A stretch of DNA of 39,870 bases, taken from assembly GCA_043797985.1 (NCBI GenBank), contig JAZDPB010000147.1:1-39870 (forward strand), read 5' to 3'. Position numbers and translations under genes: made by a program. The notes beneath the pieces were generated by a model. It worked only from the letters and a program-made list of their open reading frames with translations. It did not search any database and was not told the DNA's origin. Shown in pieces: positions 21,599 to 36,294 of this stretch (within the stretch, counting starts at the first letter, position 1; every line of letters starts with the position of its first letter). The stretch is from Chloroflexota bacterium. GTDB lineage: Bacteria; Chloroflexota; Dehalococcoidia; Dehalococcoidales; UBA2162.

Positions 21599-21805
21599 AT
21601 GAGCAAAAAGCGTGAACCGGTAAAGGAACCCCGTTACTGCCCTTATTGCGCTACGGAGATAGCTGAAGCGGCTTTCCCTTACTGTGAGGCGTGTGATGTA
21701 GAGATTTTTTATTGTCCTAAATGTCATCAACCAGTACCACGGGATAAAAAAACATGTCCCCATTGTGGGGCTGAGATAAAAGGAGAAGTGACTGCGGGAG
21801 GTTAA
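21599..21805 (+). CDS. Double zinc-ribbon small protein
   Basis: Four CxxC pairs (CPYC, CEAC, CPKC, CPHC); RBS GGAGG. Confidence 0.8.
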   Translation: MSKKREPVKEPRYCPYCATEIAEAAFPYCEACDVEIFYCPKCHQPVPRDKKTCPHCGAEIKGEVTAGG

Positions 21806-21809
21806 ACCA

Positions 21810-22292
21810 ATGGCAGAGAAGCAAAAGTTAACCCTCGTTGTCTTCAGCGGCGAGCTGGACAAGGCGCTGGCGGCTTTTATACTGGCGACCACTGGCGCCA
21901 GCATGGGGATGGAAGTCAGCATGTTCTTTACCTTTTGGGGACTAAATATCATCAAGAAGAACGAAGGCAGTATCAAAAGCAAAGGGTTGATGAGGAAAAT
22001 GCTTAATGTCATGAACCGGGGTGGCTCCAGGAGGTTGAAGCTTTCCCGGTTCAATATGCTTGGCTTGGGGACCTGGATGATGAAAAAATTGATGAAGGAG
22101 TCTAACTACCCGACCATAGACGAGTTTATCACTATGGCACAGCAGATGGGGGTAAAAATGATTCCCTGTTCCACATCATGCGGTATTATGGGCCTAGCCG
22201 AAGATGCCTTTCGCAGCGAAGTTGGAAGTCTGGCCGGCGCAGCATATTTCTTGAACGAGGCACGACAATCACAAGTAACATTTTTTATCTAA
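21810..22292 (+). CDS. DsrE/DrsH-like (DsrE2) sulfur-relay/peroxiredoxin-family protein
   Basis: VFSGELDKALAAFILA...MFFTFWGL, IPCSTSCGIMG. Confidence 0.88.
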   Translation: MAEKQKLTLVVFSGELDKALAAFILATTGASMGMEVSMFFTFWGLNIIKKNEGSIKSKGLMRKMLNVMNRGGSRRLKLSRFNMLGLGTWMMKKLMKESNYPTIDEFITMAQQMGVKMIPCSTSCGIMGLAEDAFRSEVGSLAGAAYFLNEARQSQVTFFI

Positions 22293-22325
22293 CCAGCTTC
22301 GTTTCCAACTCAAGGAGGGATAGGT

Positions 22326-22556
22326 ATGAAAGCGGATAAAACCCTGGACTGCGTCGGATTATATTGTCCGATGCCTATTGTCAAAACCGCCCAAAAAATA
22401 AAGGAGCTAAAAACCGGTGAGATACTGGAAGTGGTGGCTGATGATAAGGGCATCAAACAGGATATGCCTGCCTGGTGCCAGTCCACGGGACACGAGTGCC
22501 TGGGAATCGAGGAGGACAGTGGCGAAATCAAGGTCTATGTTAAGAAGACACATTAA
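22326..22556 (+). CDS. tusA: TusA/SirA-family sulfurtransferase
   Basis: LDCVGLYCPMP, EVVADD, DMPAWC. Confidence 0.92.
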   Translation: MKADKTLDCVGLYCPMPIVKTAQKIKELKTGEILEVVADDKGIKQDMPAWCQSTGHECLGIEEDSGEIKVYVKKTH

Positions 22557-22613
22557 TGAACACTCTTTGGGTATAGCATCATCTCTGAAAGGAATGGACT
22601 GAGAATAGAGAAA

Positions 22614-24605: not shown

Positions 24606-26642
24606 CTACTTAAACAATACTTCAGCTACCAATTCACTGATATCCCTGATATGTAAAGTTTCTTCCGCCCCCTTAGCCTTTACCCCATCTTCAAACATTA
24701 TCAAACAGTAAGGACAGGCAGTTGCCATCAGGTCTACTTTGGCTTCAATCATCTCAGCGACCCTGCGTTCATTGACACGCTGGCTAGGTTCTTCCTCCAT
24801 CCACATGTGACCACCGCCCCCGCCACAACAAAAGCTTCTTGTGCCATGTCGACTGAGTTCCACTCGCTTAAGCCCGCCAATAGCCTTCAAAATATTCCTG
24901 GGCGCTTCGTAAATTGCATTATAGCGCCCCAAGTAGCACGAATCGTGGTAAGCTATCCTCTTATCATTCAATGCCCCGAGTTTCACCTTGGCATCACGAA
25001 TCAAGTCAGCGATAAACTCGGTATGATGAACGACCTCAAAGCTGCCACCAAATTGTGGATATTCGTTTTTAAGAGTATTAAAACAATGGGGACAAGTAGT
25101 TAAGATTTTCTTAACGTTATACGATTTAAAAAGCTCGATATTACTTTCGCAGATGGTCTTAAACAGGTATTCATCACCCATTCGGCGGGCTGGGTCACCA
25201 CAGCAACTTTCTTCATTACCCAGTACCCCAAAGTTAACTCCCGCTGCCTGTAGAATCTTAACCACGGACTTAGCCACATTGGTATTCCGCTCGTCAAGAG
25301 CCGCGGTGCAACCTACCCAATACAGGATATCAATGTCCTTATTCTCCGCAAGCACCTTCAAATTCAAACCATCAAACCAAGTAGTCCTTGTCGCTGTGGT
25401 CCCTCTCCATGGATGTCCCCTGTCTCCCAGGCTCTTGAGCGCATCCTGGGCAGATTCAGGGAATTTGACTCTTACCATAGCCAGATTGCGACGCATATCT
25501 ATTATCTTGTCAACATGCTCGATGTAAACGGGACACGCTTGCTGGCAAGCGCGACAGGTAGTACAGTCCCAGATTACCTCCTCCGAAATTACTTCAGATA
25601 TCATATCTTTCCGTGACTCAACGGGTTTTTTCAGCAGAGGCACCGGGTAAACTTCATAAAGATGGTCTTTTAAGTTCAAGATGACCTGTTTGGGATTGAG
25701 CTTCTTACCACTAAAATAGGCAGGACAATCATCCTGACAACGCCCACAGCGAGTACAGGCATCAAGGTCTAGGAGTTGCTTCCAGGTAAATTCCTCAATG
25801 TTGGATACACCATATAGCTCTGTTTTCTCAAAATCTATAGGATTCAAAGCCCCTTTGGGCTTTAGCGAACGAAAGTATATGTTTAACGGTGACAATAGTA
25901 TATGTTGCAACCTGGAGTGGTTTACCCAAATATAGCCAAGAAGAATAAACGCCGGTATGGTGTGGATTATCGCACGGTGCCATACCAAGATTTCATTCTT
26001 AGCTTCAATCATAAAAGTAGGGAAGATGTGTGAAAGAAGGTAACCTACCGGCGACCACATCGCCCAATCGGTGGGATTAACGTCACTAACAGCAATACGA
26101 TAACCTTTTACCATGAGACCAGTTAATACAATCAATAATACCCAGACATAAACCAAGCTGTCTTCCGGTTTGTTATCCAGACGAGGCGGTCGGACAACAT
26201 ACCTGCGATATACTGCCATACCTCCGCCAATGAGAAGCAGCACCGCACCGACCTCAGAGACCAGAGAAGCATACAGGTATACACTCTGCGGGGGATTGGT
26301 TATACCAGTCAGATATGAAAACAGCCTGACTATCTTACCCAGGATAAGAACTGTGGCTCCACCAAAAATAAGAGCGTGCATTATACCCGGGTAAAGTTCT
26401 TTTACTCTAATAATCCGGATGCTAGCCACCGCTACTGCCATGGTGGTCGCAAGTCTCTTCCACCAATCACCGGAACGGTTATCTGGCTGTCCCAGCTTCC
26501 ACAGTCGGTAGTGACGGCTAAAACCGAAGGCAAAAAGTAGAGCCAGTAAAGGGACAAACACTAAAAAGGCAATTATGACCGGCAGGAAAACTTCTGTTAT
26601 ATAGACTTCCTGACCCGCCCAGAACAGTTCACGCAAAGACAT
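24606..26642 (-). CDS. Membrane FeS oxidoreductase (NarI-like TM + 2x[4Fe-4S] + 2 CCG domains; HdrD/FadF/ETF:quinone-oxidoreductase-like)
   Basis: N-terminal TM helices with His (MHALIF, WHRAIIH, LQH), CTRCGRCQDDCP, CTTCRACQQACP, ESCCGDP, CPHC, YHDSC, FCCGGG, ACPYC. Confidence 0.9.
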   Translation of the reverse strand: MSLRELFWAGQEVYITEVFLPVIIAFLVFVPLLALLFAFGFSRHYRLWKLGQPDNRSGDWWKRLATTMAVAVASIRIIRVKELYPGIMHALIFGGATVLILGKIVRLFSYLTGITNPPQSVYLYASLVSEVGAVLLLIGGGMAVYRRYVVRPPRLDNKPEDSLVYVWVLLIVLTGLMVKGYRIAVSDVNPTDWAMWSPVGYLLSHIFPTFMIEAKNEILVWHRAIIHTIPAFILLGYIWVNHSRLQHILLSPLNIYFRSLKPKGALNPIDFEKTELYGVSNIEEFTWKQLLDLDACTRCGRCQDDCPAYFSGKKLNPKQVILNLKDHLYEVYPVPLLKKPVESRKDMISEVISEEVIWDCTTCRACQQACPVYIEHVDKIIDMRRNLAMVRVKFPESAQDALKSLGDRGHPWRGTTATRTTWFDGLNLKVLAENKDIDILYWVGCTAALDERNTNVAKSVVKILQAAGVNFGVLGNEESCCGDPARRMGDEYLFKTICESNIELFKSYNVKKILTTCPHCFNTLKNEYPQFGGSFEVVHHTEFIADLIRDAKVKLGALNDKRIAYHDSCYLGRYNAIYEAPRNILKAIGGLKRVELSRHGTRSFCCGGGGGHMWMEEEPSQRVNERRVAEMIEAKVDLMATACPYCLIMFEDGVKAKGAEETLHIRDISELVAEVLFK

Positions 26643-26676
26643 TATAATATTCCTTCAACTGTTATTACTTTTCTAT

Positions 26677-26892
26677 TCATGCTGCCGGATAAAACGTAGT
26701 CAAATGGGCGATGAAAAAGACGACAATTATAAGGCCTACTGCCGAAAGCGCCATGACTATAGCTTTGCTATATTTCGGTCCAATTCCCAGGTCGAAAACA
26801 GCGAGTCTAACCCCATTCAATATAGAATAGACTATCGCTGCCAGTATAAGCACTTCAACAATAATGGCAATAGTTCTAATTAATATATCCAT
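26677..26892 (-). CDS. Small two-helix membrane protein
   Basis: 71 aa, two hydrophobic segments, start overlaps the upstream stop (TAATG). Confidence 0.72.
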   Translation of the reverse strand: MDILIRTIAIIVEVLILAAIVYSILNGVRLAVFDLGIGPKYSKAIVMALSAVGLIIVVFFIAHLTTFYPAA

Positions 26893-27368
26893 TATTTAGT
26901 CCTCAACTGATTGAACTGCGCCTGGACCTTACAGGCAGGACAGAGTTCTGCCTGGGAAGAAAAAGAATGACCGACAGCCATTACCCGAGACTGTAATTTA
27001 GCTATCATTGACCTGGGACCGATAGGGCTACCACAACCCGAGCACCTGACAATCGTATCCTCAAAAAGAACCGATTGGCTATCCGTTTTCTCCAACTCCA
27101 GGACATGCTCCATGTGCAAGCACTTCTCCGGGCAGATTTCTACGCACTGGCTACATGCCACACAACGGCTTTGTCTGAAGAACAGTTGAAAGCCACCGCT
27201 CTCATCAATCGTCGAAATCGTCAGCGCACCAGTAGAGCACTCCGTAACACAAAGGCAACAACCGGTACACTTCGCAGCATCTAATTCCACCTTACCAAAA
27301 GGAGAAAGTCGCTCAAGCAATTCCCGGCGACTGAGTCCATCATTATGAGTTGCTTTGATTTCACTCAT
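26892..27368 (-). CDS. 4Fe-4S dicluster protein with extra CxxC pairs
   Basis: CTGCCLCVTEC, CVACSQCVEICP, CSGC...CPAC; SRRELL near the N-terminus without a hydrophobic h-region. Confidence 0.85.
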   Translation of the reverse strand: MSEIKATHNDGLSRRELLERLSPFGKVELDAAKCTGCCLCVTECSTGALTISTIDESGGFQLFFRQSRCVACSQCVEICPEKCLHMEHVLELEKTDSQSVLFEDTIVRCSGCGSPIGPRSMIAKLQSRVMAVGHSFSSQAELCPACKVQAQFNQLRTK

Positions 27369-27377
27369 ATTGTCATA

Positions 27378-28607
27378 CTATCCCTTACTAGCGGCAACGG
27401 AGGCTTTCTCCGTTGTTTCTTTGCCTTCTCCGGTAGTCACTTCGGTCTTTTCTTTAGCTGGTAGTAACTCCAGGTACTTCAGACCCAAGATAAAAATTAG
27501 GGATAGAAAACCAACTACCCCAATCGAGAGGACTATTTCGGCAGGAGCAAAGGCAAAAGAACCAACTGCTCCCCAAACACCCTCTATTTTCCCAGGATAA
27601 AATTGCAGAGGATAAGCTGCCCCAGGAATCACCAGATAAAATCTCTTTACAAAGATACCAATCACTATTAAAGCGGAAGCAATGACAACACCGCGGACAC
27701 TATTCTTCGCTTTGGGATGAAACAATATTATGAGAGGCACGATTACCCCCATGCCAATTAGAAAAACCCAGAAAAGCCAACTGAAAGGACCTGTAAGCAT
27801 AAACATTGCTGCCTCACGAGCCGGAGAATAGACACTGGTCAATTCACCAATTACCATTAACAGGAGCATACCAAGAAGAAGGCCCTTTACCAAGCTTCCT
27901 AAGGAGGCAATCAGGTCTTTACTGAGTTCACGTCCCGTGACCTTATAGATAAGAACCAGAACGAGTATCAACAGTGCAAGAGACGAGGTGAGCGCAGCAA
28001 AAATAAATTCGAAAGGACTCAACGGCGAGTACCATGGCTCGCGGGCAGCAATAAAGCCAAATATTGCTCCCGTGCCACCATGTGTAAGCATTGCCCAACC
28101 AAACGCTACCATTCCCATTATCATGCTAAACTTTTTCATATTGCGAAGCAGGGATATCAGATATATGAGGGCACTGATAAAGTAGGATGTGTAGAAGATT
28201 GCATTGATGGCAAACATCGACGCCATATTATTCATAAAGAACAACATAAAAAGCCGCCAGAATTTCTCTGGCCTGCCCAAATCTAAGGCGATAAATAGCA
28301 TAGCCCCGAAAATGAGCACTATCGCCATAAAAACTGCTGCCCTGATTACCTCACGGTATCTCTCTTGGTGTGCTATGTAGATAAGAAAAGCAAGAACATG
28401 AAGCCCGGCGCTGAGTCCTATCAGGTATATGGCCATGACGATAGGCATACCCCAGGGAATAACATTATTGCTACCAAACATCTGGTGGCCTTCGATGTAG
28501 CTGATAACAAAGGCAATCATTCCGCTGAGCGCCAGCACCCCCAGGACCACTACCACAGTTCGGTAGCCCCTAGACTTCCCCTCAAGAGTGACAAAATTCG
28601 AACTCAC
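27378..28607 (-). CDS. NrfD/PsrC-family membrane anchor subunit
   Basis: PWGMPI..AIYLIGLSAG, DLGRPEKFW, GTGAIFG, KRFYLVIPG; ~10 TM helices. Start moved to GTG 28607 (AAGGAG RBS, no overlap with upstream gene). Confidence 0.9.
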   Translation of the reverse strand: MSSNFVTLEGKSRGYRTVVVVLGVLALSGMIAFVISYIEGHQMFGSNNVIPWGMPIVMAIYLIGLSAGLHVLAFLIYIAHQERYREVIRAAVFMAIVLIFGAMLFIALDLGRPEKFWRLFMLFFMNNMASMFAINAIFYTSYFISALIYLISLLRNMKKFSMIMGMVAFGWAMLTHGGTGAIFGFIAAREPWYSPLSPFEFIFAALTSSLALLILVLVLIYKVTGRELSKDLIASLGSLVKGLLLGMLLLMVIGELTSVYSPAREAAMFMLTGPFSWLFWVFLIGMGVIVPLIILFHPKAKNSVRGVVIASALIVIGIFVKRFYLVIPGAAYPLQFYPGKIEGVWGAVGSFAFAPAEIVLSIGVVGFLSLIFILGLKYLELLPAKEKTEVTTGEGKETTEKASVAASKG

Positions 28608-28615
28608 TTCGCTCC

Positions 28616-29302
28616 TTACTTTGGCAAATAAAATACCTTCGGGCTGGTACCCTTCTCTTCCTGGAGTCTTAACCACTGCCGGGATGCTAGCAAATATGAT
28701 ACAGAGCTATCAGGGTCATCTAAATCTCCAAAGCTTATAGCACGTGCCGGGCAGGCTTCAGCACATGCGGGCACTACCTCTTCACCCACCTTCTTACCCT
28801 CTCTCATCGCCTGGTCTATACGGTGGAAGCAGAACGTGCACTTCTCGACTACGCCATGAACCCGATGAGGGAAGGGCCAAATGGTCATATCAGCACGCTG
28901 GAAAGGAAGGTCAGGACGGTCGTACTCATTTTCCTCCGGTTCCTTATAGTTAAAATTCCTGACACCATAGGGGCAGGCAACAATACAGTACTTGCAACCG
29001 ATGCAACGCCTGAAGTTCTGTATCACAATCCCGTCCTCGCGGCGATAGGTTGCCCTGGCCGGGCATACCGTTACACACGGAGCGTTATCGCAGTGCATGC
29101 ATGGCATCGGTATCAGGTCAATCCTCAATGTCGGGTATTCCCCATGACTAACTGCAATTACCTTATGCCAGAAAGGAGTCAATCTCCTTTTGTGTTCCTC
29201 CGGCGACCCATGGGGTACATTGTTTTCAGTCTTACAGGCTATAGAACAAGACTGACAGCCAGTACATTTGTCCAGGTCAATAACCATTCCCCATCTTGCC
29301 AT
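28616..29302 (-). CDS. 4x[4Fe-4S] subunit of a complex iron-sulfur molybdoenzyme (NrfC/PsrB/ArrB type)
   Basis: RWGMVIDLDKCTGCQSCSIAC, PCMHCDNAPCVTVCP, CIGCKYCIVACP, KCTFC, PACAEACP, FGDLDDP. Confidence 0.93.
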   Translation of the reverse strand: MARWGMVIDLDKCTGCQSCSIACKTENNVPHGSPEEHKRRLTPFWHKVIAVSHGEYPTLRIDLIPMPCMHCDNAPCVTVCPARATYRREDGIVIQNFRRCIGCKYCIVACPYGVRNFNYKEPEENEYDRPDLPFQRADMTIWPFPHRVHGVVEKCTFCFHRIDQAMREGKKVGEEVVPACAEACPARAISFGDLDDPDSSVSYLLASRQWLRLQEEKGTSPKVFYLPK

Positions 29303-29315
29303 TGCTTACCTTACC

Positions 29316-31676
29316 TCACGCCTTGTAGACCCTGACCCTCGTGTTGAAGCAAGCTGACTGTCCACTCAGGCGGTCATAGTCTACGCCGATAATTTCATTA
29401 GGATTGACGCCAATGCCCCTTGCCCATTTACCATAGGCATAGTGGCCCTGGCCCCTGGCTATGCTCACCACTTGGGGGTGAATGCCCTCAAAGACCCTGG
29501 CCCGTACCTTGATTTTGCCGAACGGAGATTCTATCCAAACCGTATCACCGTCGTTAATTCCTAGAGTGCGGGCTGTCTTGCTATTTATTTCAACGAAATT
29601 GGTCCAACCCCGGCCATGCATCACCAGGAATATCTCCTGAGCCCAGGGATAGTTCTGGCTCCCATTATCAATATTCAATAATGGCTGGTAGGTTGATAAC
29701 ATTAGGGGATAACTGTTACTGTCACCCAAAAATTCGACTTTCTCATAGTGCGGCAGGTATGTCAGCTTATCAATTGTCTGCCCTGTCTTTTTAAGCAGGG
29801 CTTCAAGATTGCCCGAACGGAATTCAAATTTCCTTGACGGCGTATTGAATACGCGGTCATATTTATAATATTTATAAGGTGACCCCACCCAGACACCTTG
29901 CGCAAGGAACTCCTCCCATGGTATAAGTACCTCCGTGCGGTATCTGACAAACCCCTGAGTATTATCACCAATGCCAGCAAAGGATTGCTCAACCGTACCC
30001 CCCACCCGTTTTGCCAATTCAAAAATGATGTCGACGCTACTCTTAGTGTTGTACAAGGGTTCTACCACCGGCTGCTTTATCCTTATCTCGGCGAAGCCCG
30101 AACCTGGTGGCGAGTGGTCGTAAGCCCATTCTTCCATAAATGTATTTGCTGGTAGTAGAATGTCGGCATACTCCGCCATTTCACTGACAAAGGGAGCAAC
30201 ATGGACATAATAGGGCACCTTCTGAAGCGCTTCATCCCAGCGCCATGCTCCCGGAGCAGACATATTGCAGTTACTGTTAAAACCTATAGCCATCCCGACC
30301 GGGTATGGCTTATTTTCTAATATAGAATCTGCTACCTGATTGGTGACTACTTCCGCAGCCGGGAACTGGTTTGTTTTCCGCAAATCTAACGTAGGTTTAG
30401 CCTTGCCTTCTTTGGCTATAGCATCTTCAACTGTTTCAGGTATAACTCGATATGCCGGACTCTCTTGATAAATTACCCCTCCCGGAACATCTATACTGCC
30501 GACGAGGGCGTTAAGACAGAATATGGCGTAGCTGCTGTAAGAGCCATTAGGCCAACTGGTGGCACCCCGCCCCCTCCAGGCTATCGCCGGTTTTGCCGTG
30601 GCGAATTCTCTGGCTATTTGTCGAATCATTTCGGAGGGAATACCCGTTGTGACCGCTACCTGTTCCGGACTGTAATAATTAAGTACCAGGTCTTTATAAT
30701 CATCGAAGCCCGCTGCCCAATTCTTGATGAAATCAACATCGTAAAGAGCTTCGCTTATTATTACATTAGCTATTGCCATAGCCAGAGCACCATCAGTACC
30801 GGGATTGATAGGTAGCCACTGGTCAGCCCTGAGGGCGGTAACCGAATAGCGTGGGTCGATAACTACCACCTTCGCCCGGTTAGGTCTTTCCCGGCGAATC
30901 TTACCCCACATCCTTAAACTTCTGGCTAGCGGCGTATATGATTCCAGAATACTTGCACCGAAGGACAGAATATAATTGGTTCTGGGAAGGTCGTAGGCAC
31001 TCTGGGTATAGTTGCCGTCTGCCATCCACTCGCCAGCTTTATCGGCTTCATTATTAAATCCGCCTGCGCTAACGATATTGGGTGTGCCGTAAGCATCGGC
31101 AAAGCGATAAATTATGTCCTCAGCACTGACACTGTTTAAACCACTAAGTAGCAATAACTGGTGAGGTCGCCCCTCTCCCCGGAGCACTTTTAGATGCTTA
31201 CTCACCTCGTCCAGAGCTTGTATCCAGGATATAGGAGCCCATCCGGGGTCTATCCCTCGGCCTTTCGCCGGATTAGTTCGCTTTAAGGGAGTAGCTAGTC
31301 GGTCCGGGTCATACAATACTTGAAGACCAACATGAGCACGGGCACAGTTTTCTCCCTCGGATACTTGGGATAAGGAGTTACCGGCTATCTTTACCGCTCT
31401 ACCATTGACCACTCTTACTCTGGTAGCACAACGGGTAGCACAGTTCAGACAAGACGTTGGGAGCCACTTTTCAGTGATGACACCTTCGTCAGGCAGTTTA
31501 GGAGAGGAAATGATAGAACCCAACACGGAGTGATTAAAAAAACGGCTGGCGGCAACCGCTACGCCGGCAAGTCCCGATAATTTGAGAAAGGTCCTCCGGC
31601 TTATGCCAAAGCGACCTCGGATTTCTGTCTTCGTAGCGTTCGACTCCTGTCTCCCTGTTGATGAATCAGTTACCAT
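29316..31676 (-). CDS. Tat-exported molybdopterin oxidoreductase-family large subunit (ArrA/ArxA/PsrA-like scaffold)
   Basis: SRRTFLK Tat motif; FS0 CLNCATRC...C; YDPDRL..PLKRTNP.KGRG.DP...PISW; VIDPR, PGTDGALA, EYADILLP, VEINS. Confidence 0.92.
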   Translation of the reverse strand: MVTDSSTGRQESNATKTEIRGRFGISRRTFLKLSGLAGVAVAASRFFNHSVLGSIISSPKLPDEGVITEKWLPTSCLNCATRCATRVRVVNGRAVKIAGNSLSQVSEGENCARAHVGLQVLYDPDRLATPLKRTNPAKGRGIDPGWAPISWIQALDEVSKHLKVLRGEGRPHQLLLLSGLNSVSAEDIIYRFADAYGTPNIVSAGGFNNEADKAGEWMADGNYTQSAYDLPRTNYILSFGASILESYTPLARSLRMWGKIRRERPNRAKVVVIDPRYSVTALRADQWLPINPGTDGALAMAIANVIISEALYDVDFIKNWAAGFDDYKDLVLNYYSPEQVAVTTGIPSEMIRQIAREFATAKPAIAWRGRGATSWPNGSYSSYAIFCLNALVGSIDVPGGVIYQESPAYRVIPETVEDAIAKEGKAKPTLDLRKTNQFPAAEVVTNQVADSILENKPYPVGMAIGFNSNCNMSAPGAWRWDEALQKVPYYVHVAPFVSEMAEYADILLPANTFMEEWAYDHSPPGSGFAEIRIKQPVVEPLYNTKSSVDIIFELAKRVGGTVEQSFAGIGDNTQGFVRYRTEVLIPWEEFLAQGVWVGSPYKYYKYDRVFNTPSRKFEFRSGNLEALLKKTGQTIDKLTYLPHYEKVEFLGDSNSYPLMLSTYQPLLNIDNGSQNYPWAQEIFLVMHGRGWTNFVEINSKTARTLGINDGDTVWIESPFGKIKVRARVFEGIHPQVVSIARGQGHYAYGKWARGIGVNPNEIIGVDYDRLSGQSACFNTRVRVYKA

Positions 31677-31718
31677 CAGCAGGTTAGTAGTTATTAGCTA
31701 ATTGCGCACGTTCATTGT

Positions 31719-32678
31719 CTATGCCGTGTTTTTCTTAATTTTCTCCGTGAGCTTGGGTACCACCTGATAAAGGTCGGCAACTATCCCATAATCAGCTATC
31801 TTGAATATAGGAGCATTTTTATCTTTATTGACGGCGGCGATAATCTTGGAGTTGCGAATTCCCACCGTATGTTGAATTTGCCCCGAAATCCCGATAGAAA
31901 TACACAGACGCGGTTTACACTTCTTGCCTGAGAGCCCAACCTCTCTCTCTTCAGAAAACCACTGCCAATCATGTGCCAACGGCCGGGTACAGCCAATGCT
32001 GGCTTTCAAGACCTGGGACAGTTCTTCAATTAGCGCCAGGTCTTTCTTCTCGCTTATACCTCTTCCCACACAGATTAGAGTTTCGGCTTCCTCTATCTGT
32101 GCTGAATCGGATTTCTTTTCTTGCTTTTCCACAATCTTGGTACGCGGCTCCCGCACTTTAAGGTCAACATGAACAATTTCACCCTGCCTTGATTCCTTTT
32201 CACCCGGCTCAAAGGCTTTAGGCATTACTGAAATTACTTTCTTGGCAGTCCCAATGGATTGTGTTAATACCGTATTCCCTCCCAGAGCATACCTATCTGT
32301 TACCAGTTCCTCGTTTTGCAGCCTGATATCAATTGCATCGGTAATACATCCAGCACCCAGCTTTTGTGCCACTCTGGGTGCTAACTCTTTGCCTCTTTTA
32401 GTGGAACCGATTAGAAGAAGGTCGGCTCCATAATTATTAGCTATTTGACAGATGGCTTCAGTATAAACATCGGCATGAAAATCTTCCATCGAAGCTAAAT
32501 TGTTCCAATATACTATGTCGGCGCCGTAGGCAAAATAATCGTCTATCTTTGCCTCAGCATTCTTCCCCAGCTTTACGGCCGCCAAATTAACTTTCAAACT
32601 ATCTTTCAGCTCTTTACCTTTGGACAGGAGCTCGAAGGCAATTTCGTCTCGCTCGCAAAACACCAAAATCTCGGACAT
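31719..32678 (-). CDS. fixB: Electron transfer flavoprotein alpha subunit (FixB/YdiR-like)
   Basis: VGRG, CTRP, VGLSG, GISGQIQH, NKDKNAPIF..ADYGIVADL. Confidence 0.92.
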   Translation of the reverse strand: MSEILVFCERDEIAFELLSKGKELKDSLKVNLAAVKLGKNAEAKIDDYFAYGADIVYWNNLASMEDFHADVYTEAICQIANNYGADLLLIGSTKRGKELAPRVAQKLGAGCITDAIDIRLQNEELVTDRYALGGNTVLTQSIGTAKKVISVMPKAFEPGEKESRQGEIVHVDLKVREPRTKIVEKQEKKSDSAQIEEAETLICVGRGISEKKDLALIEELSQVLKASIGCTRPLAHDWQWFSEEREVGLSGKKCKPRLCISIGISGQIQHTVGIRNSKIIAAVNKDKNAPIFKIADYGIVADLYQVVPKLTEKIKKNTA

Positions 32679-32680
32679 AA

Positions 32681-33463
32681 TCAGCCCCCTAATACTCCTT
32701 CCTTTAAGAGTGAGTTAACCAGACTATCTATATTCTGGTCGGAGTCTCCTTCGAGGATGACCAGCTTCCTCTGCTCCACTGGTGCCAAATTACTTAGCAT
32801 TTTGATTTGTTGTCCCCCCACCTCATCAGCCGTGACACCAATGTTCGAGCTTTTCCACTCCTGCAGCGGCTTCCTTGAAGCGCGTAAAATCTGAGTCAGA
32901 GATGGTATCCGAGGCTCGTTTATGCCGCTGGTGATGGTAATTACAGCCGGCAGTTGGGCTTCAACTACCTCAAAACATTCCTCTACGCTTCTCACTGCTT
33001 TTACTTTGTTGTCAGCAAACTCTATTTGCTTAACATAGGTTATTACTGGTAAATCAAGAAGTTCAGCCAGTCTCGGTCCTGTCTGTCCCGAGTAACTATC
33101 GGCTGAGCCTTCTCCCAGGAGTATGAGGTCATATTTACCGATTTTCTGTATTGCCTTCATCAAAACCTGGGCTTTCCCCATAGAATCGAGATTATCAAAT
33201 AAGGGGTCGATAAGAATGACAGCCTCATCGGCACCTACAGCGAGAGCATCTTTTATGGTGTCTCTGAGTTTTGGTGAGCCTAAGGATAGGGCAATTACCT
33301 TTCCGCCTGACTTTTCCTTGATTTTGACAGCTTCTTCCAGGGCATTTCTATCCATGTCACCAAATAAGAAGGGCAATCCCTCCGTTACCGGCTCTCTGGT
33401 ATCTTTCTTAATCCTGACCTGTTGCAGGTCGACTACCTGCTTCAAACATACGATTATGTCCAT
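32681..33463 (-). CDS. fixA: Electron transfer flavoprotein beta subunit (FixA/YdiQ-like)
   Basis: IIVCLKQV, DRNALEEA, ALAVGAD, GEGSADSYSGQTG, NEPRIPS. Confidence 0.92.
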   Translation of the reverse strand: MDIIVCLKQVVDLQQVRIKKDTREPVTEGLPFLFGDMDRNALEEAVKIKEKSGGKVIALSLGSPKLRDTIKDALAVGADEAVILIDPLFDNLDSMGKAQVLMKAIQKIGKYDLILLGEGSADSYSGQTGPRLAELLDLPVITYVKQIEFADNKVKAVRSVEECFEVVEAQLPAVITITSGINEPRIPSLTQILRASRKPLQEWKSSNIGVTADEVGGQQIKMLSNLAPVEQRKLVILEGDSDQNIDSLVNSLLKEGVLGG

Positions 33464-33475
33464 TTAGTTGTCCTT

Positions 33476-33757
33476 TCAGCCGAATTTTAGCTGTATACCA
33501 AACCCTCCGCGAGGATAATTCCAAATCAAAGCATTCCGCTGACAGGCAATTTTACAGGTGCCACACTCCAGACAGCCATCAAGGTCCAGCTCGATTACGC
33601 CCTCCTTATTCAAAGTATAAACCTGTGCCGGACATACATAAAGACAATATCGTTCACGGCAGTCCTGACATATCTCCTGGTTGACAGTAATATGCTTAAC
33701 GGTATCAACCTTGATAGTATCCGTGCCTAACTTAGCTTTTACATTTGTCTTCGTCAT
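33476..33757 (-). CDS. fixX: FixX ferredoxin-like protein
   Basis: HI...CQDC...CLYVCPA.VY...GCLECGTC..AC...W.YPRGGFG; start ATG 33757 overlaps the fixC stop (ATGA). Confidence 0.9.
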   Translation of the reverse strand: MTKTNVKAKLGTDTIKVDTVKHITVNQEICQDCRERYCLYVCPAQVYTLNKEGVIELDLDGCLECGTCKIACQRNALIWNYPRGGFGIQLKFG

Positions 33758-35037
33758 ATCTTGAAAGCTCCCCAGATATCTTTGAGTAACGAGGGACAAA
33801 GTCGCCTGACTTGTCCAAACACTGTGCTCGATAATTTTTTCTTCGGCTCATCCCCGATAAACATGAGCTTCTCCATAGTATCACCGAAAAACTGAGGATA
33901 TAATGTGAATAGATTACGGTTGTTAAGGAAGCGCGGCGCCCCCTTGAAGGTATTTAAATCCTTCATTATGAAGCTATCCCTCAGTAAAAGTTCATAATAC
34001 GAGAGGGATTGTTTGGAAAAATCCTTCTTCTCCACAGCTCTCTTTATGGCCTTAGCTGCCAAAACACCGGAAGCTAAGGCAAATTCCATACCCCTCACTG
34101 TAAGGCCGGTATTGAGTGTGAAGCCAGCAGCATCCCCAGCCACGAGAATGCCATCCGAATACAGGCGAGGCATAGTGTTAATCCCGCCCTCAGAAATAGT
34201 ATGGGCAGAGTACTCGACTGTCTCTCCACCTTTGATTAGGCTGGCTACCTCGGGACGCTCCTTAAATTCATCTATGAGTTGAGGTGCTTCAATGGTGGGC
34301 TGTCTCTCCATTAAGTCTTTTATTCCTACTACTATCCCCAGGGAGATACTTCCCAGATTAGTATATAAAAATCCACCCCCGAACATCCCTCTGGTTAGCG
34401 AACCAACGTAGAGTTGGGCGGCACCCTCACCATTTTCCAGATTGAAGCGCTCTTCTATCGTCTGGGATGGCATTTCGATGATTTCCTTGATGCCGACAGC
34501 AAAATCTTTTGGCTGGTGGTTCCCCCTCAGTCCTGCCTTCTGGGTAATCAAGGAGATAGCCCCATCGGCAACGAGCACTACATTGGCATAGATTTTATCC
34601 TCTCCAGCAACTATCCCCTGGACTTTCCCGCTTTCCTGGATTAAATCATCCACCTTTTGTTTCGTGACTACCATGCCACCAGCCTCAGCTACCTTTTCCG
34701 AAAACCACTTGTCGAACTTAGCTCTGAGGATAGTAAAGCTATGATAGGGCTTCTCTCTGAACCTTTCACTGGATAACCGAATAGAGGTAGAAGATTTTTC
34801 ACCCATAAGGGTTATTATCTCCTGACACACATATCTTTCCAGCGGGGCTTCGTCCCAGATATCAGGCAAGAGATGCCTTACGGGATTGAGGTAGAGCCTG
34901 CCTCCGGTAACATTCTTAGCCCCGGAGTAATCTCCTCTTTCTACTACCAGAACCTCAATCCCATCTTTCGCTAAGCAATAAGCAGCCGCCAAGCCCGCCA
35001 GACCACCACCAACTACGATAACTTCAAACTTCTCCAT
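33754..35037 (-). CDS. fixC: FixC flavoprotein (ETF:quinone oxidoreductase-like)
   Basis: VVGGGLAG, ERG.YSGAKNVTGG, APLER, GGGFLYTN, EYSAH.I.EGG, AGDAAG, RGM. Confidence 0.93.
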   Translation of the reverse strand: MEKFEVIVVGGGLAGLAAAYCLAKDGIEVLVVERGDYSGAKNVTGGRLYLNPVRHLLPDIWDEAPLERYVCQEIITLMGEKSSTSIRLSSERFREKPYHSFTILRAKFDKWFSEKVAEAGGMVVTKQKVDDLIQESGKVQGIVAGEDKIYANVVLVADGAISLITQKAGLRGNHQPKDFAVGIKEIIEMPSQTIEERFNLENGEGAAQLYVGSLTRGMFGGGFLYTNLGSISLGIVVGIKDLMERQPTIEAPQLIDEFKERPEVASLIKGGETVEYSAHTISEGGINTMPRLYSDGILVAGDAAGFTLNTGLTVRGMEFALASGVLAAKAIKRAVEKKDFSKQSLSYYELLLRDSFIMKDLNTFKGAPRFLNNRNLFTLYPQFFGDTMEKLMFIGDEPKKKLSSTVFGQVRRLCPSLLKDIWGAFKI

Positions 35038-35073
35038 TCTTTCCCTTATTGACTCTGGTGGTTCAGGGCAGCC

Positions 35074-36294
35074 TTATGTTGTTATAAAGTCACTGCCAAA
35101 AGCATCTCTGCCGATGATAATTTTCATTATATTGGCAGCACCCTCGGCTCCAGCGACATAGGACATGACTCCTCTCATAGCCATCTCTAGAGGCGAATCC
35201 TTGGTATAGCCAAAAGCGCCCAGTACCATGATGGCATGCTTGGCAACATCCACTGCCAGGAGCGGTGCCAGCCATTTGCATTGAGCGATTACGATGTTTA
35301 TATCTTTCTGCGTGAAGCTACCAGGTTCAGAGTAATACTTGTCTATCATCCAGCATCCCTTCTGAAGCAGAAGTTTCAACATTTCCAGCCTGGTATAGTC
35401 TTCAGCCAATTCAAACGTTATTCCCTGGAACCTGCTTAAAGTCCGACCAAACGCTGTCCTTTGCTTGGCATAATCGAGAGCTATTTCCAAACACTTCTCG
35501 GAAGCTCCTAAGCAGGCAGAAGATACTACAGCCCTAGCTACGTTAAAGCCCTCCATACAGTGGTAAAAGCCCCTTCCTTCTTCACCTAACACATACTTCT
35601 CCAAAACTTCCGTGTTCTTGTAGGTGAATCCACCCGTGGAAAGACCCATACGCCCCATGTCCTTATAGGTGGTACTACTCATACCATTAACCTTACTGGG
35701 CATGATTGCCAGCAAAGTCATCCCACCTCGGAGACCCTTGGCTGGGTCGGTGACAATAAGGGTACAATGGCCACCTCCCCTTACCTGAGACTCAGTCACC
35801 TGACTGATATAGGCTTTCTCGCCATTTAATATATATTTACCATTCTTCTTGGTAGCCGTAGTCTTAATAGCCGCTACGTCAGAGCCACCGCCTGGTTCGG
35901 TGACGGCGATGCCCCAGCACCATTCGCCAGAAGCTAACTTGGGTAAAATCTCTCTCTTTACTTCCTCTTTAGCGTAGAGTCTCAGGAACTGTCCGCCCCA
36001 ACCAACAGTCAGTAAGGTATACACTGGAAGTGACATACTTAACTCTGCCCGGGCCAACTCATGGACTACAACGTTAGCGTATTGCATTTCCTCACCTGGC
36101 ATAGCTGAACCGCCATACTCTTCGGGAACAACACACCCGAAGACTCCTATCTCAGCGAGTCCCTTCAACATTTCATCGGGAATGCCTGCTTCCTTTTCAT
36201 CTATTTCTCTTGCCCTCGGTTCAACATTCTTCTGGCAATACTCTCTCACCGCTCTTTTGAAAAGTTCTTGCTCATGGGACATTCTAAATTCCAA
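35074..36294 (-). CDS. Acyl-CoA dehydrogenase family protein
   Basis: VPEEYGG, VTEPGGGSD, LNGEK.YIS, LGEEGRGF, R.AFGR.L..FQ, LGAFGY, GAEG (catalytic Glu position). Start uncertain (TTG 36294 or ATG 36282). Confidence 0.93.
   Translation of the reverse strand: MEFRMSHEQELFKRAVREYCQKNVEPRAREIDEKEAGIPDEMLKGLAEIGVFGCVVPEEYGGSAMPGEEMQYANVVVHELARAELSMSLPVYTLLTVGWGGQFLRLYAKEEVKREILPKLASGEWCWGIAVTEPGGGSDVAAIKTTATKKNGKYILNGEKAYISQVTESQVRGGGHCTLIVTDPAKGLRGGMTLLAIMPSKVNGMSSTTYKDMGRMGLSTGGFTYKNTEVLEKYVLGEEGRGFYHCMEGFNVARAVVSSACLGASEKCLEIALDYAKQRTAFGRTLSRFQGITFELAEDYTRLEMLKLLLQKGCWMIDKYYSEPGSFTQKDINIVIAQCKWLAPLLAVDVAKHAIMVLGAFGYTKDSPLEMAMRGVMSYVAGAEGAANIMKIIIGRDAFGSDFITT

Follow-up and report, generated by a model that had tools for sequence, protein, structure and literature searches.

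A scheme that passes electrons from an acyl-CoA dehydrogenase (ACAD) via ETF, EMO and methylmenaquinone to a periplasmic Mo enzyme is already in print for Syntrophus, where the outer enzyme of the loop is formate dehydrogenase (available sections of PMC8805022). Other systems comparable to parts of the locus studied here are the transmembrane complexes DsrMKJOP and Hmc, and EMO/EtfD of M. smegmatis, for which a structure exists (9ojn). NrfD proteins with ten helices are described, in the available sections of PMC6303296, as the type that is paired with non-standard 'catalytic' subunits.

In the window (the whole stretch of 39,870 nt that was analysed), which derives from an uncultured member of the Dehalococcoidales, an operon for acyl-CoA electron transfer lies directly ahead of a six-gene membrane module that is conserved in two phyla. 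While the preliminary description had read these 11 genes as one apparent operon, the string consists of two independently conserved units that are joined end to end in this lineage only (Table 1). Literature searches returned no prior description of the complex encoded by the second unit.

Organization of the locus

Recomputed coordinates and gaps place 11 co-oriented ORFs on the minus strand at 24606-36294, each overlapping the next or at most 42 nt from it, and Pfam and NCBIfam searches bore out every domain call made earlier for the string. Unit 1 consists of ACAD, FixC, FixX, EtfB and EtfA (successive distances 36, -46, 12 and 2 nt), and unit 2 of MoA, NrfC, NrfD, a ferredoxin, a two-helix His protein and an EMO/EtfD-family NarI-FeS-CCG protein, hereafter the CCG protein (13, -61, 9, -1 and 34 nt). 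The large overlaps of FixC with FixX and of NrfC with NrfD are probably start-calling effects, as the ORF lister opens each frame at its earliest possible start: an in-frame ATG would leave FixX with an ATGA start/stop overlap with FixC, and a GTG with AGGAG in front would start NrfD 8 nt after NrfC. A CxxCH motif was found in no protein of the string. The AOR gene, correctly placed just upstream by the preliminary description (same strand, 159-nt gap), is an upstream neighbour whose membership in the unit is only putative; five of the 80 module loci (L087, L093, L094, L101 and L107) have AOR-like genes nearby.

Table 1 Features of the locus and the matches or residues that identify them
Feature	Position	Strand	Remarks
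AOR family gene (aldehyde:ferredoxin oxidoreductase)	36454..38307	-	Pfam AFOR_N E 2.7e-75, AFOR_C E 2.5e-101
Acyl-CoA dehydrogenase (ACAD), first gene of unit 1	35074..36294	-	three ACAD Pfam domains
FixC / EtfC-like FAD protein (ETF-QO family)	33754..35037	-	Pfam ETFQO_UQ-bd 6.4e-8
FixX-like 2x[4Fe-4S] ferredoxin	33476..33799, likely true start ATG 33757	-	Pfam Fer4_ETF_QO
ETF beta subunit EtfB (FixA-like)	32681..33463	-	Pfam ETF 5.5e-41
ETF alpha subunit EtfA (FixB-like), last gene of unit 1	31719..32678	-	Pfam ETF and ETF_alpha
Junction of unit 1 and unit 2	31677..31718	-	42 nt between EtfA and MoA
MoA, Tat-exported Mo/W-bisPGD-family subunit, first gene of unit 2	29316..31676	-	ArrA-like; SRRTFLK at residues 26-32
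NrfC/DsrO/QrcC/ArrB-like four-cluster FeS subunit	28616..29302	-	16 Cys in four motifs
NrfD-family membrane subunit	27378..28676, likely true start GTG 28607	-	Pfam NrfD 1.6e-42
Cytoplasmic 2x[4Fe-4S] ferredoxin	26892..27368	-	Pfam Fer4 families; optional module member
71-aa two-helix membrane protein	26677..26892	-	His63 in 56/56 copies
EMO/EtfD-family CCG protein, 678 aa, last gene of unit 2	24606..26642	-	PDB 9ojn E 9.9e-110

The junction between the units is real rather than a product of misassembly in this MAG, since a DNA contig from an independent run of another study bridges it, covering 31533-31801 (269 bases, 10 differences). Terminator-like sites were not called in the junction. In relatives, 100-260 nt separate MoA from the gene ahead of it, which is unrelated and often divergent. 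Among contigs of RNA runs, those that match the window exactly were confined to AOR, ACAD and the border of ACAD with FixC, MoA was met only as diverged contig pieces, and no RNA-run contig spanned the junction, although contigs as such cannot demonstrate a transcript.

Conservation of the two units

Unit 1 recurs without the Mo module. A relative (G008) carries all five genes at 66-77% identity, metagenome contigs L134 and L136 likewise have the whole set with no MoA after it, and contigs L131 and L132, which start within FixC, continue through FixX, EtfB and EtfA with MoA not next. Among seven ACAD-Fix or EtfA contigs with at least 1.3 kb past EtfA, none had a Mo subunit after EtfA, nor did G008; the contigs that lack it there include L131, L132, L135 and L136. 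ACAD itself is 77% identical to that of G008 and 74-76% to those of metagenome contigs, always with FixC downstream. Its best NCBIfam matches, glutaryl-CoA, acryloyl-CoA and cyclohexanecarboxyl-CoA dehydrogenases, are all far under cut-off (e.g. 216 vs 470 bits), and its substrate is not assignable. FixC reaches 392 bits for PRK10015 (cut-off 466) and 385 bits for FixC PRK10157 (cut-off 610), FixX 63 bits (1.7e-17, cut-off 166), and EtfB matches EftB, PRK12342 and FixA, all under cut-off.

Unit 2 is conserved in Dehalococcoidia and Thermodesulfobacteriota. Completeness was judged on the 43 of 80 module loci with at least 6.5 kb after MoA, and in 41 of these NrfC, NrfD, the small membrane protein and the CCG protein are encoded in the same order: 21 of 22 long loci from Dehalococcoidia/Chloroflexota and 20 of 21 from Thermodesulfobacteriota or unassigned records, the taxon being taken from record titles. 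One locus (L064) has MoA-NrfC-small protein-CCG with no space for NrfD.

Conservation of the whole block, as expected for a single operon, was not found: none of the 80 module loci has FixC, none of the 48 from Dehalococcoidia has ETF genes, and FixX appears only as cross-matches inside NrfC. ACAD, FixC, FixX and EtfB are absent from ten stretches of nine relatives whose MoA orthologue is 57-72% identical, the sole exception to the lack of unit 1 genes being an EtfA-like match (39%) 5.3 kb upstream in L033. An intergenic gap precedes MoA in L025, L026, L027, L030 and L033, and in the four of these that were scanned the upstream genes encode unrelated proteins (peptide-binding protein, DAG kinase, TatA) or, in the case of two short ORFs, match no family. 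A close FixC (>50% identity) and the module occur together only in G000 among 41 related genomes. Given this single genome and the lack of ETF in the 48 Dehalococcoidia loci, the adjacency in the window may be functionally meaningless. The module would then be a general respiratory or redox-balancing complex, with ACAD-FixABCX independent of it, as in relatives, and, instead of ETF, its cytoplasmic partner would be a ferredoxin, a protein of the MvhD/Hdr type, or a thiol/disulfide substrate that, as for HdrD or DsrK, reacts at the double-CCG domain. The occurrence of the units apart in relatives and metagenomes speaks for this explanation, which we nevertheless regard as improbable. ETF genes lie within the fetched flanks of 10 of 32 non-Chloroflexota (Thermodesulfobacteriota or unassigned) module loci, with a co-oriented EtfB-EtfA pair immediately ahead of MoA in six (L084, L090, L097, L099, L103 and L106) and an EtfB-EtfA pair immediately after the CCG gene in L082 and L094. 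A complete separation of the two halves in other genomes, raised in the preliminary description, therefore does not hold for ETF, because EtfB-EtfA adjoins the Mo subunit elsewhere, and the proposed link of ETF to the Mo-NrfCD part recurs. The ETF of the window, however, is only 30-43% identical to these module-adjacent ETFs and is of the FixAB type with its own FixCX partner, which counts against its entry into the module.

The Mo-family subunit and its partners

MoA retains the Cys of an FS0 cluster (C76/C79/C83/C111) and matches the structures of ArrA (6cz7, E 2e-121) and PsrA (2vpw, 8e-53); its NCBIfam ArrA score is 480 bits vs a cut-off of 1600. The metal-ligand column holds Cys in 0 of 81 copies (Asp 43, Glu 26, Asn 6, Gly 4, His 1, other 1), and the MoA of the window has Asn208 at this position. 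Thus, MoA is neither ArrA nor Psr, as Asp, Glu or Asn mostly stand where both would carry the ligand Cys. In addition, of the five residues checked that contact the substrate in ArrA, taken from the list in the available sections of PMC10654088, four are replaced. The pterin cofactor and the substrate of MoA are putative only, as is the part of this CISM subunit in a catalytic redox loop of the Psr/Arr type.

NrfC passes the NCBIfam cut-off for DsrO (200.2 bits, cut-off 200), scores 217 for QrcC (cut-off 400) and matches ArrB (1.4e-47) and ActB of ACIII (1.6e-43) in the PDB. It has no signal peptide and is therefore presumably co-exported with MoA. NrfD has DsrP and QrcD as its best NCBIfam matches, both under cut-off, and ActC (1.6e-10) in the PDB; ten hydrophobic peaks in the alignment-averaged profile suggest about ten helices, as in the NrfD type that goes with non-standard 'catalytic' subunits, which favours the reading of unit 2 given below.

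The CCG protein and the small membrane protein

The CCG protein combines a five-helix NarI-like haem b domain, an HdrC-like 2x[4Fe-4S] domain and an HdrB-like double-CCG domain (non-cubane cluster). Over 50 aligned copies, His89, His227, His247 and His519 are invariant, His222 is kept in 49, and 8+10 cluster Cys are conserved. Comparison with the SaEMO ligands in the available sections of the preprint 10.64898/2026.08.18.745454 aligns His519 with H534 of SaEMO and H583 of MsEMO, each of which fills the substrate site of the proximal non-cubane cluster, an argument against a partner other than ETF. All ten HdrB-pattern Cys are retained here (C480 50/50, C520 43/50), whereas SaEMO and MsEMO, the two characterised EMOs, each lack the equivalent of C480 or C520, a difference that favours such a partner. 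A quick tree places module CCG proteins and ETF-adjacent copies of Syntrophales-type genomes in one clade (SH-aLRT 97), again in favour of ETF; the monophyly of the module proteins has an SH-aLRT of 77 in this unfinished tree. Structure match, ligands and tree agree with the earlier assignment and place the protein in the EMO/EtfD family, whose members are membrane oxidoreductases linked to ETF.

The further proposal of a second, independent ETF link is not supported. The CCG gene always accompanies the module, and five loci (L088, L091, L099, L103 and L106) have an in-frame fusion of the 71-aa protein with the CCG protein, so that, judged by gene content, the CCG protein belongs to the Mo module. 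The 71-aa protein, which weakly resembles SdhC cytochrome b556 over the C-terminal half of the latter (NCBIfam 2.4e-7, under cut-off), is its predicted subunit. The suggested structure prediction of NrfD with CCG(1-285) and the small protein gave a median ipSAE of 0.59 (runs 0.53, 0.59 and 0.62; at least 84% of contacts common, partner pLDDT at least 71), while the best of three controls gave 0.00. Of 80 solved complexes 58 reach the mark used, against 2 of 110 mismatched pairs, but passing values of 0.60 or less comprise only 7 of the 80 solved complexes together with both passing mismatches, and the predicted contact may be read as a faint indication of one complex rather than two.

Proposed electron flow and possible role of quinone

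We moderately favour two joined conserved operons, in which unit 2 would form a Dsr/Hmc-like transmembrane complex with EMO-type entry of ETF and would probably carry acyl-CoA-derived electrons over the membrane to an outer-face Mo-type protein. Unit 1 would exchange electrons with the acyl-CoA/enoyl-CoA couple via its FixAB-type ETF. In unit 2, the Tat-exported, ArrA-like MoA that has lost its Cys ligand and its four-cluster FeS partner would stand at the outer face, the ten-helix NrfD and a haem b protein (the 71-aa His subunit plus the NarI-like domain) in the membrane, and the HdrC/HdrB-like FeS domains of the CCG protein, an EMO/EtfD paralogue, in the cytoplasm. Reduced ETF could dock at the non-cubane-cluster domain, as with EMO, and electrons would cross via the FeS clusters and haems b to reach NrfC and MoA, either directly or via a quinone held at NrfD. 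MoA would then reduce an outer-face acceptor or hand electrons to another outer-face protein; alternatively, the chain may run in reverse and reduce enoyl-CoA. We infer that all parts assemble, that ETF docks and that both units are co-transcribed, and likewise the substrate and the direction of flow. In the chain from acyl-CoA to the outside that was first proposed, gene identities, EMO family and ETF recurrence stand, but the separate operons tell against it, as do the results on the quinone loop and the catalytic CISM.

Taken literally, that proposal describes three separate quinone-reactive enzymes whose only coupling is through a pool of free menaquinone. MoA-NrfC-NrfD would be a catalytic reductase or oxidase of the Psr/Arr type at the outer face, the CCG protein would act as ETF:menaquinone oxidoreductase, and FixCX would provide a second ETF-quinone link, in a redox loop akin to the published EMO/formate dehydrogenase loop of Syntrophus. 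This arrangement, unlikely though somewhat less so than an incidental adjacency, is in line with the presence of every EMO hallmark in the CCG protein, the quinone-reactive NrfD of characterised complexes (available sections of PMC6303296) and the ETF-QO quinone-binding domain matched by FixC. More generally, FixC, the 544-567-aa frames called FixC/ETF-QO-like by length alone, NrfD and the five invariant membrane His suggest quinone and haem chemistry. The loss of the Cys ligand and ArrA contact residues of MoA, however, stands against a pool-coupled catalytic enzyme, and a search for the men/mqn pathway found none of MqnA/D, MqnC, MenA, MenB or MenD over cut-off in five genomes of 76-96% completeness, while the controls, TatC and Moco biosynthesis, were present in all five. 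The quinone loop therefore stays putative here. UbiA-family MenA-like frames with 63-70 bits (cut-off 102) in three of the five genomes favour the pool; ALAD was found in one of the five. Quinone and haem are likewise putative parts of the favoured complex. The tight co-inheritance of the six genes, the fused forms of the small protein and L064, which lacks NrfD, fit one complex better than two enzymes sharing a pool.

Other cytoplasmic partners of this complex are hinted at by the module ferredoxin gene, present in 26 of the 43 long loci, and by an MvhD+Fer4 gene inside the module in L027 and L029; both favour an incidental adjacency, as does a gene for an FAD-oxidase-FeS-CCG fusion 3' of the module in several Thermodesulfobacteriota loci. 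The ferredoxin matches HyfH/HycF, NuoI and NapF-like families, all under cut-off. It carries a C-terminal CxxC...CxxC pair and an S/T-R-R-E/D-L/F-L motif; most of 31 aligned copies keep this motif, which is internal in the MvhD-fused forms.

Organisation of the gene string

The window corresponds to contig C93, one of 186 contigs in a metagenome-assembled genome of 1.73 Mb and 76% completeness. The proteins closest to those it encodes come from sources named Dehalococcoidales, Dehalococcoidia or Chloroflexota. The eleven co-oriented and tightly spaced minus-strand genes of the preliminary description are all present as ORFs, and Pfam and NCBIfam agree with the domain calls made for them. In order these are an acyl-CoA dehydrogenase (ACAD), FixC, FixX, EtfB, EtfA, an exported ArrA-like subunit of the Mo/W-bisPGD family (MoA), NrfC (16 Cys), NrfD, a ferredoxin, a small transmembrane (TM) protein of 71 aa and a membrane-anchored CCG protein of 678 aa. 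Intergenic distances range from -61 to 42 nt, and two large overlaps, of FixX with FixC and of NrfD with NrfC, vanish with likelier start codons (table). No protein of the block contains a CxxCH motif.

The remainder of the contig includes genes of an ordinary anaerobe context as well as a plus-strand cluster that runs convergently towards the end of the string. The ORF directly before the nifS gene of this cluster has an ATP-cone and, of the ribonucleotide reductase domains, just the N-terminal all-alpha one, and it is much shorter than the large subunit of that enzyme.

Coordinates of features in the window and, where a locus or genome is named, in related sequences
Feature	Position	Strand	Remark
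2-Oxoacid:ferredoxin oxidoreductase (two subunits), then flavodiiron-type protein	4212-7725	+	ordinary anaerobe context
RtcB ligase with archease	12200-14085	-	ordinary anaerobe context
ATP-cone ORF	19141-19911	+	256 aa
NifS, NifU-N, DsrE/DrsE_2-like protein, RACo-type corrinoid reductive activase	20022-24530	+	RACo stop (24530) faces CCG gene stop (24606)
11-gene string	24606-36294	-	ACAD to CCG protein
Ferredoxin	26892-27368	-	158 aa
NrfD, likelier start	28607	-	GTG after AGGAG
Contig of another study's run	31533-31801		269 bases, 10 differences
EtfA/MoA junction	31677-31718		42 nt
FixX, likelier start	33757	-	ATG; ATGA overlap with FixC stop
Aldehyde:ferredoxin oxidoreductase (AOR)	36454-38307	-	159 nt upstream of string
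MoA of closed genome G023 (L109 = L031)	C1:743928-745916		stops at about residue 681
Second MoA piece of G023	435109-435486		C-terminal part matches, 300 kb away
MoA of L033 (genome G020)	9522-11830		split into two overlapping frames
MvhD/FlpD + 2x[4Fe-4S] insert, L027	4706-5950		between NrfD and ferredoxin (Pfam)
MvhD/FlpD + 2x[4Fe-4S] insert, L029	4048-4884		between NrfD and ferredoxin (Pfam)
FAD-linked oxidase (GlcD-like)-FeS-CCG fusion, L069	17208-19784		858 aa, after module (Pfam)

Two conserved units joined in one lineage

The string had been read as one operon carrying a complete redox chain. The gene identities and the kinship of the CCG protein with the EMO/EtfD family hold, but the single operon does not: the string consists of two conserved units that are joined in this lineage only, ACAD-FixC-FixX-EtfB-EtfA (unit 1) and the six-gene module that runs from MoA to the CCG protein. 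Conservation of the whole block was not found in the neighbourhood comparison, in which the units stand apart in relatives, in genome G008 and in metagenome contigs. When 40 related genomes and the window's own genome (G000) were searched with MoA, and up to 20 kb was fetched around each orthologue and around a paralogue in genome G014 (42-47% identity), orthologues were found in nine related genomes at 57-72% identity. The module is complete in four of their loci (L025, L027, L029, L033) and lacks the ferredoxin in a fifth (L030), and in the remaining four it is interrupted by a contig end or broken. Neither ACAD, FixC, FixX nor EtfB occurs in the relatives' fetched loci (up to 20 kb each), and the sole match of unit 1 type is an EtfA-like protein of 39% identity, 5.3 kb from the module in L033. 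MoA is the first gene of the operon in these relatives, with 100-260 nt preceding it, and the genes further upstream are unrelated where they can be named (peptide-binding protein, DAG kinase, one TatA); the other short ORFs there have no family match.

FixC of unit 1 has a patchy distribution. A match to it at E <=1e-30 occurs in 10 of the 41 genomes and exceeds 50% identity in G008 (71%) and G006 (54%) only. G008 carries all five genes in the same order at 66-77% identity, followed by other genes, and contains no MoA orthologue. Scanning metagenome contigs with EtfA retrieved all five genes of unit 1 as a block in L134 and L136 and FixC-FixX-EtfB-EtfA in L131 and L132, both of which start within FixC, and MoA follows EtfA in none of the seven metagenome contigs that extend 1.3-8 kb beyond it.

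The junction itself is real, as it is spanned by a contig from the run of a different study. Promoter-like and terminator-like sites between 24000 and 39000 (29 against 22.5 +/- 5.4 in shuffles, and 18 against 13.0 +/- 3.8) carry no weight either way, and the same consensus scan, which does not outperform shuffles, placed no such site within the junction. Four sequencing runs were compared with the window, all of them short assembled contigs that can neither prove nor exclude co-transcription. In the RNA run, assembled contigs identical to the window cover AOR, the 5' end of ACAD and the ACAD/FixC border only; MoA is met by diverged pieces only, and the missing identical cover on the module carries no evidential weight.

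Distribution of the six-gene module

The six-gene module is of more interest than the 11-gene string. An alignment of 62 MoA orthologues searched against one genome per species gave 80 loci, of which 48 are from Dehalococcoidia/Chloroflexota by source name and 32 from Thermodesulfobacteriota or unassigned sources, including Syntrophaceae, Syntrophus, Syntrophorhabdus and 'delta proteobacterium'. In 43 loci the sequence extends 6.5 kb or more beyond MoA; 41 of these have the genes for NrfC, NrfD, small TM protein and CCG protein in unchanged order, and 26 have a ferredoxin gene. One of the two exceptions, L064, reads MoA-NrfC-small TM-CCG and has no room for NrfD, since only about 60 nt separate NrfC from the small ORF. 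The other lies in the one-contig closed genome G023, where MoA is truncated and the module genes are absent after it; a second, C-terminal MoA piece of that genome and the split MoA of L033 are listed in the table. In five loci (L088, L091, L099, L103, L106; two verified by translation) the small TM and CCG proteins form a single in-frame fusion. Such variants form a natural test series for the cooperation of NarI-type and NrfD-type proteins, with or without NrfD, with the small subunit fused or separate, and with or without ferredoxin or MvhD.

A molybdenum-family subunit without the cysteine ligand

Four sequence features of a CISM complex are seen, namely a twin-arginine signal (SRRTFLK) and an FS0 cluster pattern (C76/C79/C83/C111, with Arg113) in MoA, the 16-Cys NrfC and the NrfD anchor. 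The nearest solved structures of MoA are ArrA (6cz7, E 2e-121) and PsrA (2vpw, 8e-53), and chains A/B of the same two entries are the closest for MoA and NrfC. The Tat motif, the FS0 cluster and the DPR and PGTD stretches of ArrA and PsrA are kept in MoA. In contrast, the Mo-ligand Cys of ArrA, which we take to be Cys193 in Shewanella ANA-3 (the position was checked on the alignment), is replaced by Asn208 in the window. None of the 81 copies has Cys in this column: 69 carry Asp (43) or Glu (26), six Asn, four Gly, one His and one a different residue. The G014 paralogue, 42-47% identical to MoA, retains the ligand Cys. Substrate-contact residues of ArrA are reported as Tyr166, His189, Ser190, Lys198 and Tyr210 (PMC10654088); the window has Asn181, Ala204, Gly205, Lys213 and Gln225 at these sites, and Lys alone is kept.

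As the ligand Cys is absent and the contact residues are changed, MoA is not an arsenate or polysulfide reductase. ArrA (0/81 Cys, four of five contact residues changed) is also rejected by its NCBIfam score of 480 bits against a cut-off of 1600, and PsrA/PhsA by the missing Cys, a PhsA score of 309 against 694 and a partner NrfD of about ten helices, where PsrC is an 8-helix anchor. QrcB is likewise rejected, with a score of 262 against 440 and no CxxCH motif in the block. The module poses the question what role a Cys-less relative of ArrA plays.

As regards a putative bound Mo/W-bisPGD cofactor, MoA has R276 and G293 in 81/81 copies and D295 in 66/81, and its ligand column is mostly acidic or amide in place of Cys. 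Among Chloroflexota, 48 of the 49 copies retain the Asp of the DPR stretch (column 274), which is replaced in 30 of 32 others, by Asn, Gln or His in 29 of the 32 and by Ser in one more, a phylum-specific change in a stretch that is otherwise conserved and common to ArrA and PsrA.

Iron-sulfur and small membrane proteins

NrfC reaches the DsrO cut-off (200.2 bits against 200), stays below that of QrcC, and matches ArrB and ActB in the PDB. NrfD has about ten hydrophobic helices, its best matches being DsrP (the best in NCBIfam), QrcD and ActC. NrfD family members with ten helices have been described as partners of non-standard 'catalytic' subunits, one of them QrcB, which has no cofactor (Duarte et al., PMC6303296).

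The ferredoxin contains a conserved S/T-R-R-E/D-L/F-L motif that resembles the twin-arginine consensus. This motif (SRRELL in the window) is not an export signal because it is internal in the forms fused to an MvhD-like domain (L050, L059, L095, L112), and no hydrophobic stretch follows it; a NapF-like role is a possible analogy. The 71-aa protein matched no family above cut-off in NCBIfam or Pfam, and its His63 is invariant (56/56 copies). Judging from the fused forms and from the EMO N-terminus, which is reported to lie outside, His63 would lie near the outer face and the distal haem site.

The CCG protein and its kinship with EMO/EtfD

The best PDB match of the CCG protein is 9ojn (E 9.9e-110), the ETF:(methyl)menaquinone oxidoreductase (EMO) of M. 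smegmatis (MsEMO; 10.64898/2026.08.18.745454), an enzyme called EtfD there and in M. tuberculosis. The EMO of Syntrophus aciditrophicus (SaEMO; SYN_02638) is reported to have five TM helices, three haems b (ligands H87/H251 proximal, H233 distal), two cubane and two non-cubane clusters, and an H534 that fills the site binding substrate in heterodisulfide reductase (10.64898/2026.08.18.745454). The module protein has the same single chain, with a NarI-like domain (five hydrophobic peaks), an HdrC-like 2x[4Fe-4S] part and a double-CCG non-cubane domain, and it conserves the three haem-ligand His and the His of the proximal non-cubane cluster. His89, His227 and His247 occur in 50/50 copies and His222 in 49/50, their matching to H87, H233 and H251 of SaEMO being by chain position rather than direct alignment. 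The eight cubane-cluster Cys (296-306, 360-370) and His519, which aligns with the 'CPHC' of MsEMO (9ojn), are likewise found in 50/50 copies. All ten CCG-domain Cys are kept in most module copies, including the two of which SaEMO (G535) and MsEMO (T539) have each lost one.

Unlike EMO, the module protein has a gene that invariably comes last in a Mo-NrfC-NrfD operon. It is accompanied by a two-helix subunit bearing an invariant His, either as a separate protein or as a fusion, which the EMO-like copies adjacent to ETF genes lack. In a quick tree of 25 of the 49 module sequences (G000 and every second of the other 48), the module proteins fall into one clade (SH-aLRT 97) with EMO-like proteins encoded next to ETF genes in four Thermodesulfobacteriota/unassigned loci, and within this clade the two sets are split with a value of only 77. 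This weakly suggests that the module CCG proteins are a paralogous group within EMO/EtfD.

Association with electron transfer flavoprotein

ETF genes stand by the module in 10 of the 32 non-Chloroflexota loci and in 0 of the 48 Chloroflexota loci, the window besides. Six of the ten (L084, L090, L097, L099, L103, L106) have EtfB-EtfA immediately before MoA in the same orientation, four of them with a second, EMO-like CCG gene upstream of the pair. In two others (L082, L094) EtfB-EtfA directly follows the module, and in two more (L064, L088) it is located nearby. The window is the sole Chloroflexota case found, and its ETF is of a different, FixAB type. Such independent recruitment of ETF in two phyla favours a functional link between ETF and module, short of proving one.

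By Pfam, unit 1 holds the FixABCX gene set, with ETF beta, ETF alpha, an ETF-QO-like FAD protein and a small 2x[4Fe-4S] ferredoxin adjacent, and, by its family names, it may carry out electron bifurcation from NADH to quinone and ferredoxin. Among ACAD-plus-Fix gene sets we count caiA-fixABCX and ydiO-ydiQRST of E. coli, in which the same five genes are likewise adjacent, and E. coli-named NCBIfam models are among the best matches. However, every match of unit 1 to these models is below the equivalog or subfamily cut-off, its order after ACAD is C-X-B-A, and it abuts a Mo module in this lineage only.

In S. aciditrophicus strain SB the gene adjoining the ETF genes is SYN_02635, which reportedly appears in a paper on acetyl-CoA-dependent ATP formation and which we take to encode acetyl-CoA synthetase; EMO of strain SB therefore probably does not have the module as a neighbour. 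EtfB-EtfA-MoA is present in L097, from a metagenome-assembled genome titled S. aciditrophicus.

A proposed single complex and the question of quinone

That the six proteins form one complex is favoured by their invariant co-inheritance, by the variants in which the small protein is fused or NrfD is missing, and by structure prediction. The prediction of NrfD with the CCG protein and the 71-aa protein, a check proposed in the preliminary description, lends weak support to contact of NrfD with the CCG membrane domain and the small protein. The median ipSAE was 0.59 (best control 0.00), and the runs had at least 84% of contacts in common and a partner pLDDT of at least 71. Of 80 solved complexes, 58 attain the ipSAE mark, as do 2 of 110 mismatched pairs, and values up to 0.60 comprise only seven of the 80 and both passing mismatches.

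The availability of quinone and haem was considered in five module-bearing genomes (G000, G013, G015, G017, G020; 76-96% complete), each of which has genes for NrfD and for EMO-like proteins that keep the haem-ligand His. No MqnA/D, MqnC, MenA, MenB or MenD scored over cut-off in any of the five, and the controls, TatC and Moco-biosynthesis domains, were found in 5/5. ALAD was detected in G013 alone, yet the module has five invariant membrane His. This sharpens a puzzle, as several 'quinone' and 'haem' proteins occur together with no recognisable menaquinone pathway and with a tetrapyrrole marker in one genome of five.

Perhaps the module is a previously unrecognised 'ETF:outer-face acceptor oxidoreductase' that operates in Dehalococcoidales without a free quinone pool, although we regard this as unlikely. 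The EMO paralogue would have gained an extra His-bearing two-helix subunit, and its distal haem(s) would pass electrons straight to the four-cluster NrfC and then to the ArrA-derived subunit, in whose metal site Asp, Glu, Asn or no protein ligand would replace Cys. The 10-helix NrfD would then serve energy coupling and not quinone binding, and the module would be to beta-oxidation what the quinone-independent dehalogenase complex is to organohalide respiration in Dehalococcoides. Against such a quinone-free complex stand the match of FixC to the ETF-QO quinone-binding domain, MenA-like prenyltransferase frames of 63-70 bits, and FixC-like frames of 544-567 aa (31-38% identity) in five genomes (G000, G013, G017, G014, G023), which by their length may be full-length ETF-QO.

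Comparison with characterised complexes

The architecture resembles DsrMKJOP or Hmc with a Mo-family subunit in place of the cytochrome, or Qrc/ACIII with an EMO unit added. DsrMKJOP and HmcABCDEF of sulfate reducers follow the same logic, with an outer four-cluster FeS protein (DsrO/HmcB), a 10-helix NrfD (DsrP/HmcC), a NarI-like cytochrome b (DsrM/HmcE) and a cytoplasmic CCG protein (DsrK/HmcF); Hmc includes a small TM protein as well, HmcD. However, the module has no c-type cytochrome and a Mo-family subunit at the place of DsrJ/HmcA, its NarI and CCG parts are a single chain, and the DsrP, DsrK, HmcB and HmcF models fall far under cut-off. DsrMKJOP itself is rejected by the missing cytochrome c motif and by scores of 77 against 400 (DsrK) and 78 against 350 (DsrP), and no dsr gene was found among the window ORFs scanned.

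Qrc and ACIII are alike in having an outer Mo-family-like subunit without the usual ligand, a four-cluster FeS protein and a 10-helix NrfD, and ActB and ActC of ACIII are among the best PDB matches of NrfC and NrfD. This pattern of a ligand-less outer subunit with FeS protein and 10-helix NrfD has been described (PMC6303296). The module differs in having no multihaem cytochrome, in keeping the FS0 Cys and the adjacent Arg, and in its EMO-type subunit. QrcABCD is excluded by the missing CxxCH and by scores below cut-off for QrcC (217 against 400) and QrcD (72 against 570) as for QrcB.

In the same order, Dehalococcoides mccartyi is reported to have no quinones or cytochromes, and its organohalide respiration complex, composed of a hydrogenase, three QrcBCD-like subunits and RdhAB, to work without quinones (PMC6303296). 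A Mo-family/FeS/NrfD trio and the absence of men/mqn matches over cut-off are shared with the module genomes. In contrast, the block contains neither hydrogenase nor dehalogenase, the module includes a membrane subunit of haem type whose His are conserved, and MoA is at most about 30% identical to Mo-family frames of the order's small complete genomes searched.

How anaerobes dispose of the fairly high-potential electrons of acyl-CoA oxidation, or use enoyl-CoA as an acceptor, is an old problem in syntrophy and subsurface metabolism. To our knowledge EMO/EtfD is the only characterised membrane link for these electrons, its biochemistry reportedly dating from 2021-22 and its structure from 2026. 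An EMO paralogue with an outer Mo-family/FeS pair and a Qrc/Dsr-type NrfD would be a second, distinct exit or entry for acyl-CoA electrons, and the module occurs in two abundant groups, the Dehalococcoidia and Syntrophales-type Thermodesulfobacteriota. For Syntrophus, the scheme reported runs from ACAD through ETF, EMO and methylmenaquinone to an outer-face formate dehydrogenase (PMC8805022). A Mo-NrfCD-EMO operon is undescribed in the literature searched outside subscription journals and supplements, and the CCG phylogeny of the EMO preprint could include such paralogues.

Accessory genes of the module

In L027 and L029 an extra MvhD/FlpD and 2x[4Fe-4S] gene or domain is inserted in the module (table), and similar gaps of more than 1 kb between NrfD and ferredoxin are present, by spacing, in L057, L059, L062, L095, L108, L112 and L113. 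In these Dehalococcoidia modules, the insert hints at a cytoplasmic partner of the Hdr/Mvh type. The FAD-linked oxidase-FeS-CCG fusion that follows the module in L069 is a possible further cytoplasmic electron donor, and CCG-like matches occur at similar offsets after the module in eight Thermodesulfobacteriota loci (L072, L078, L079, L080, L092, L096, L098, L110).
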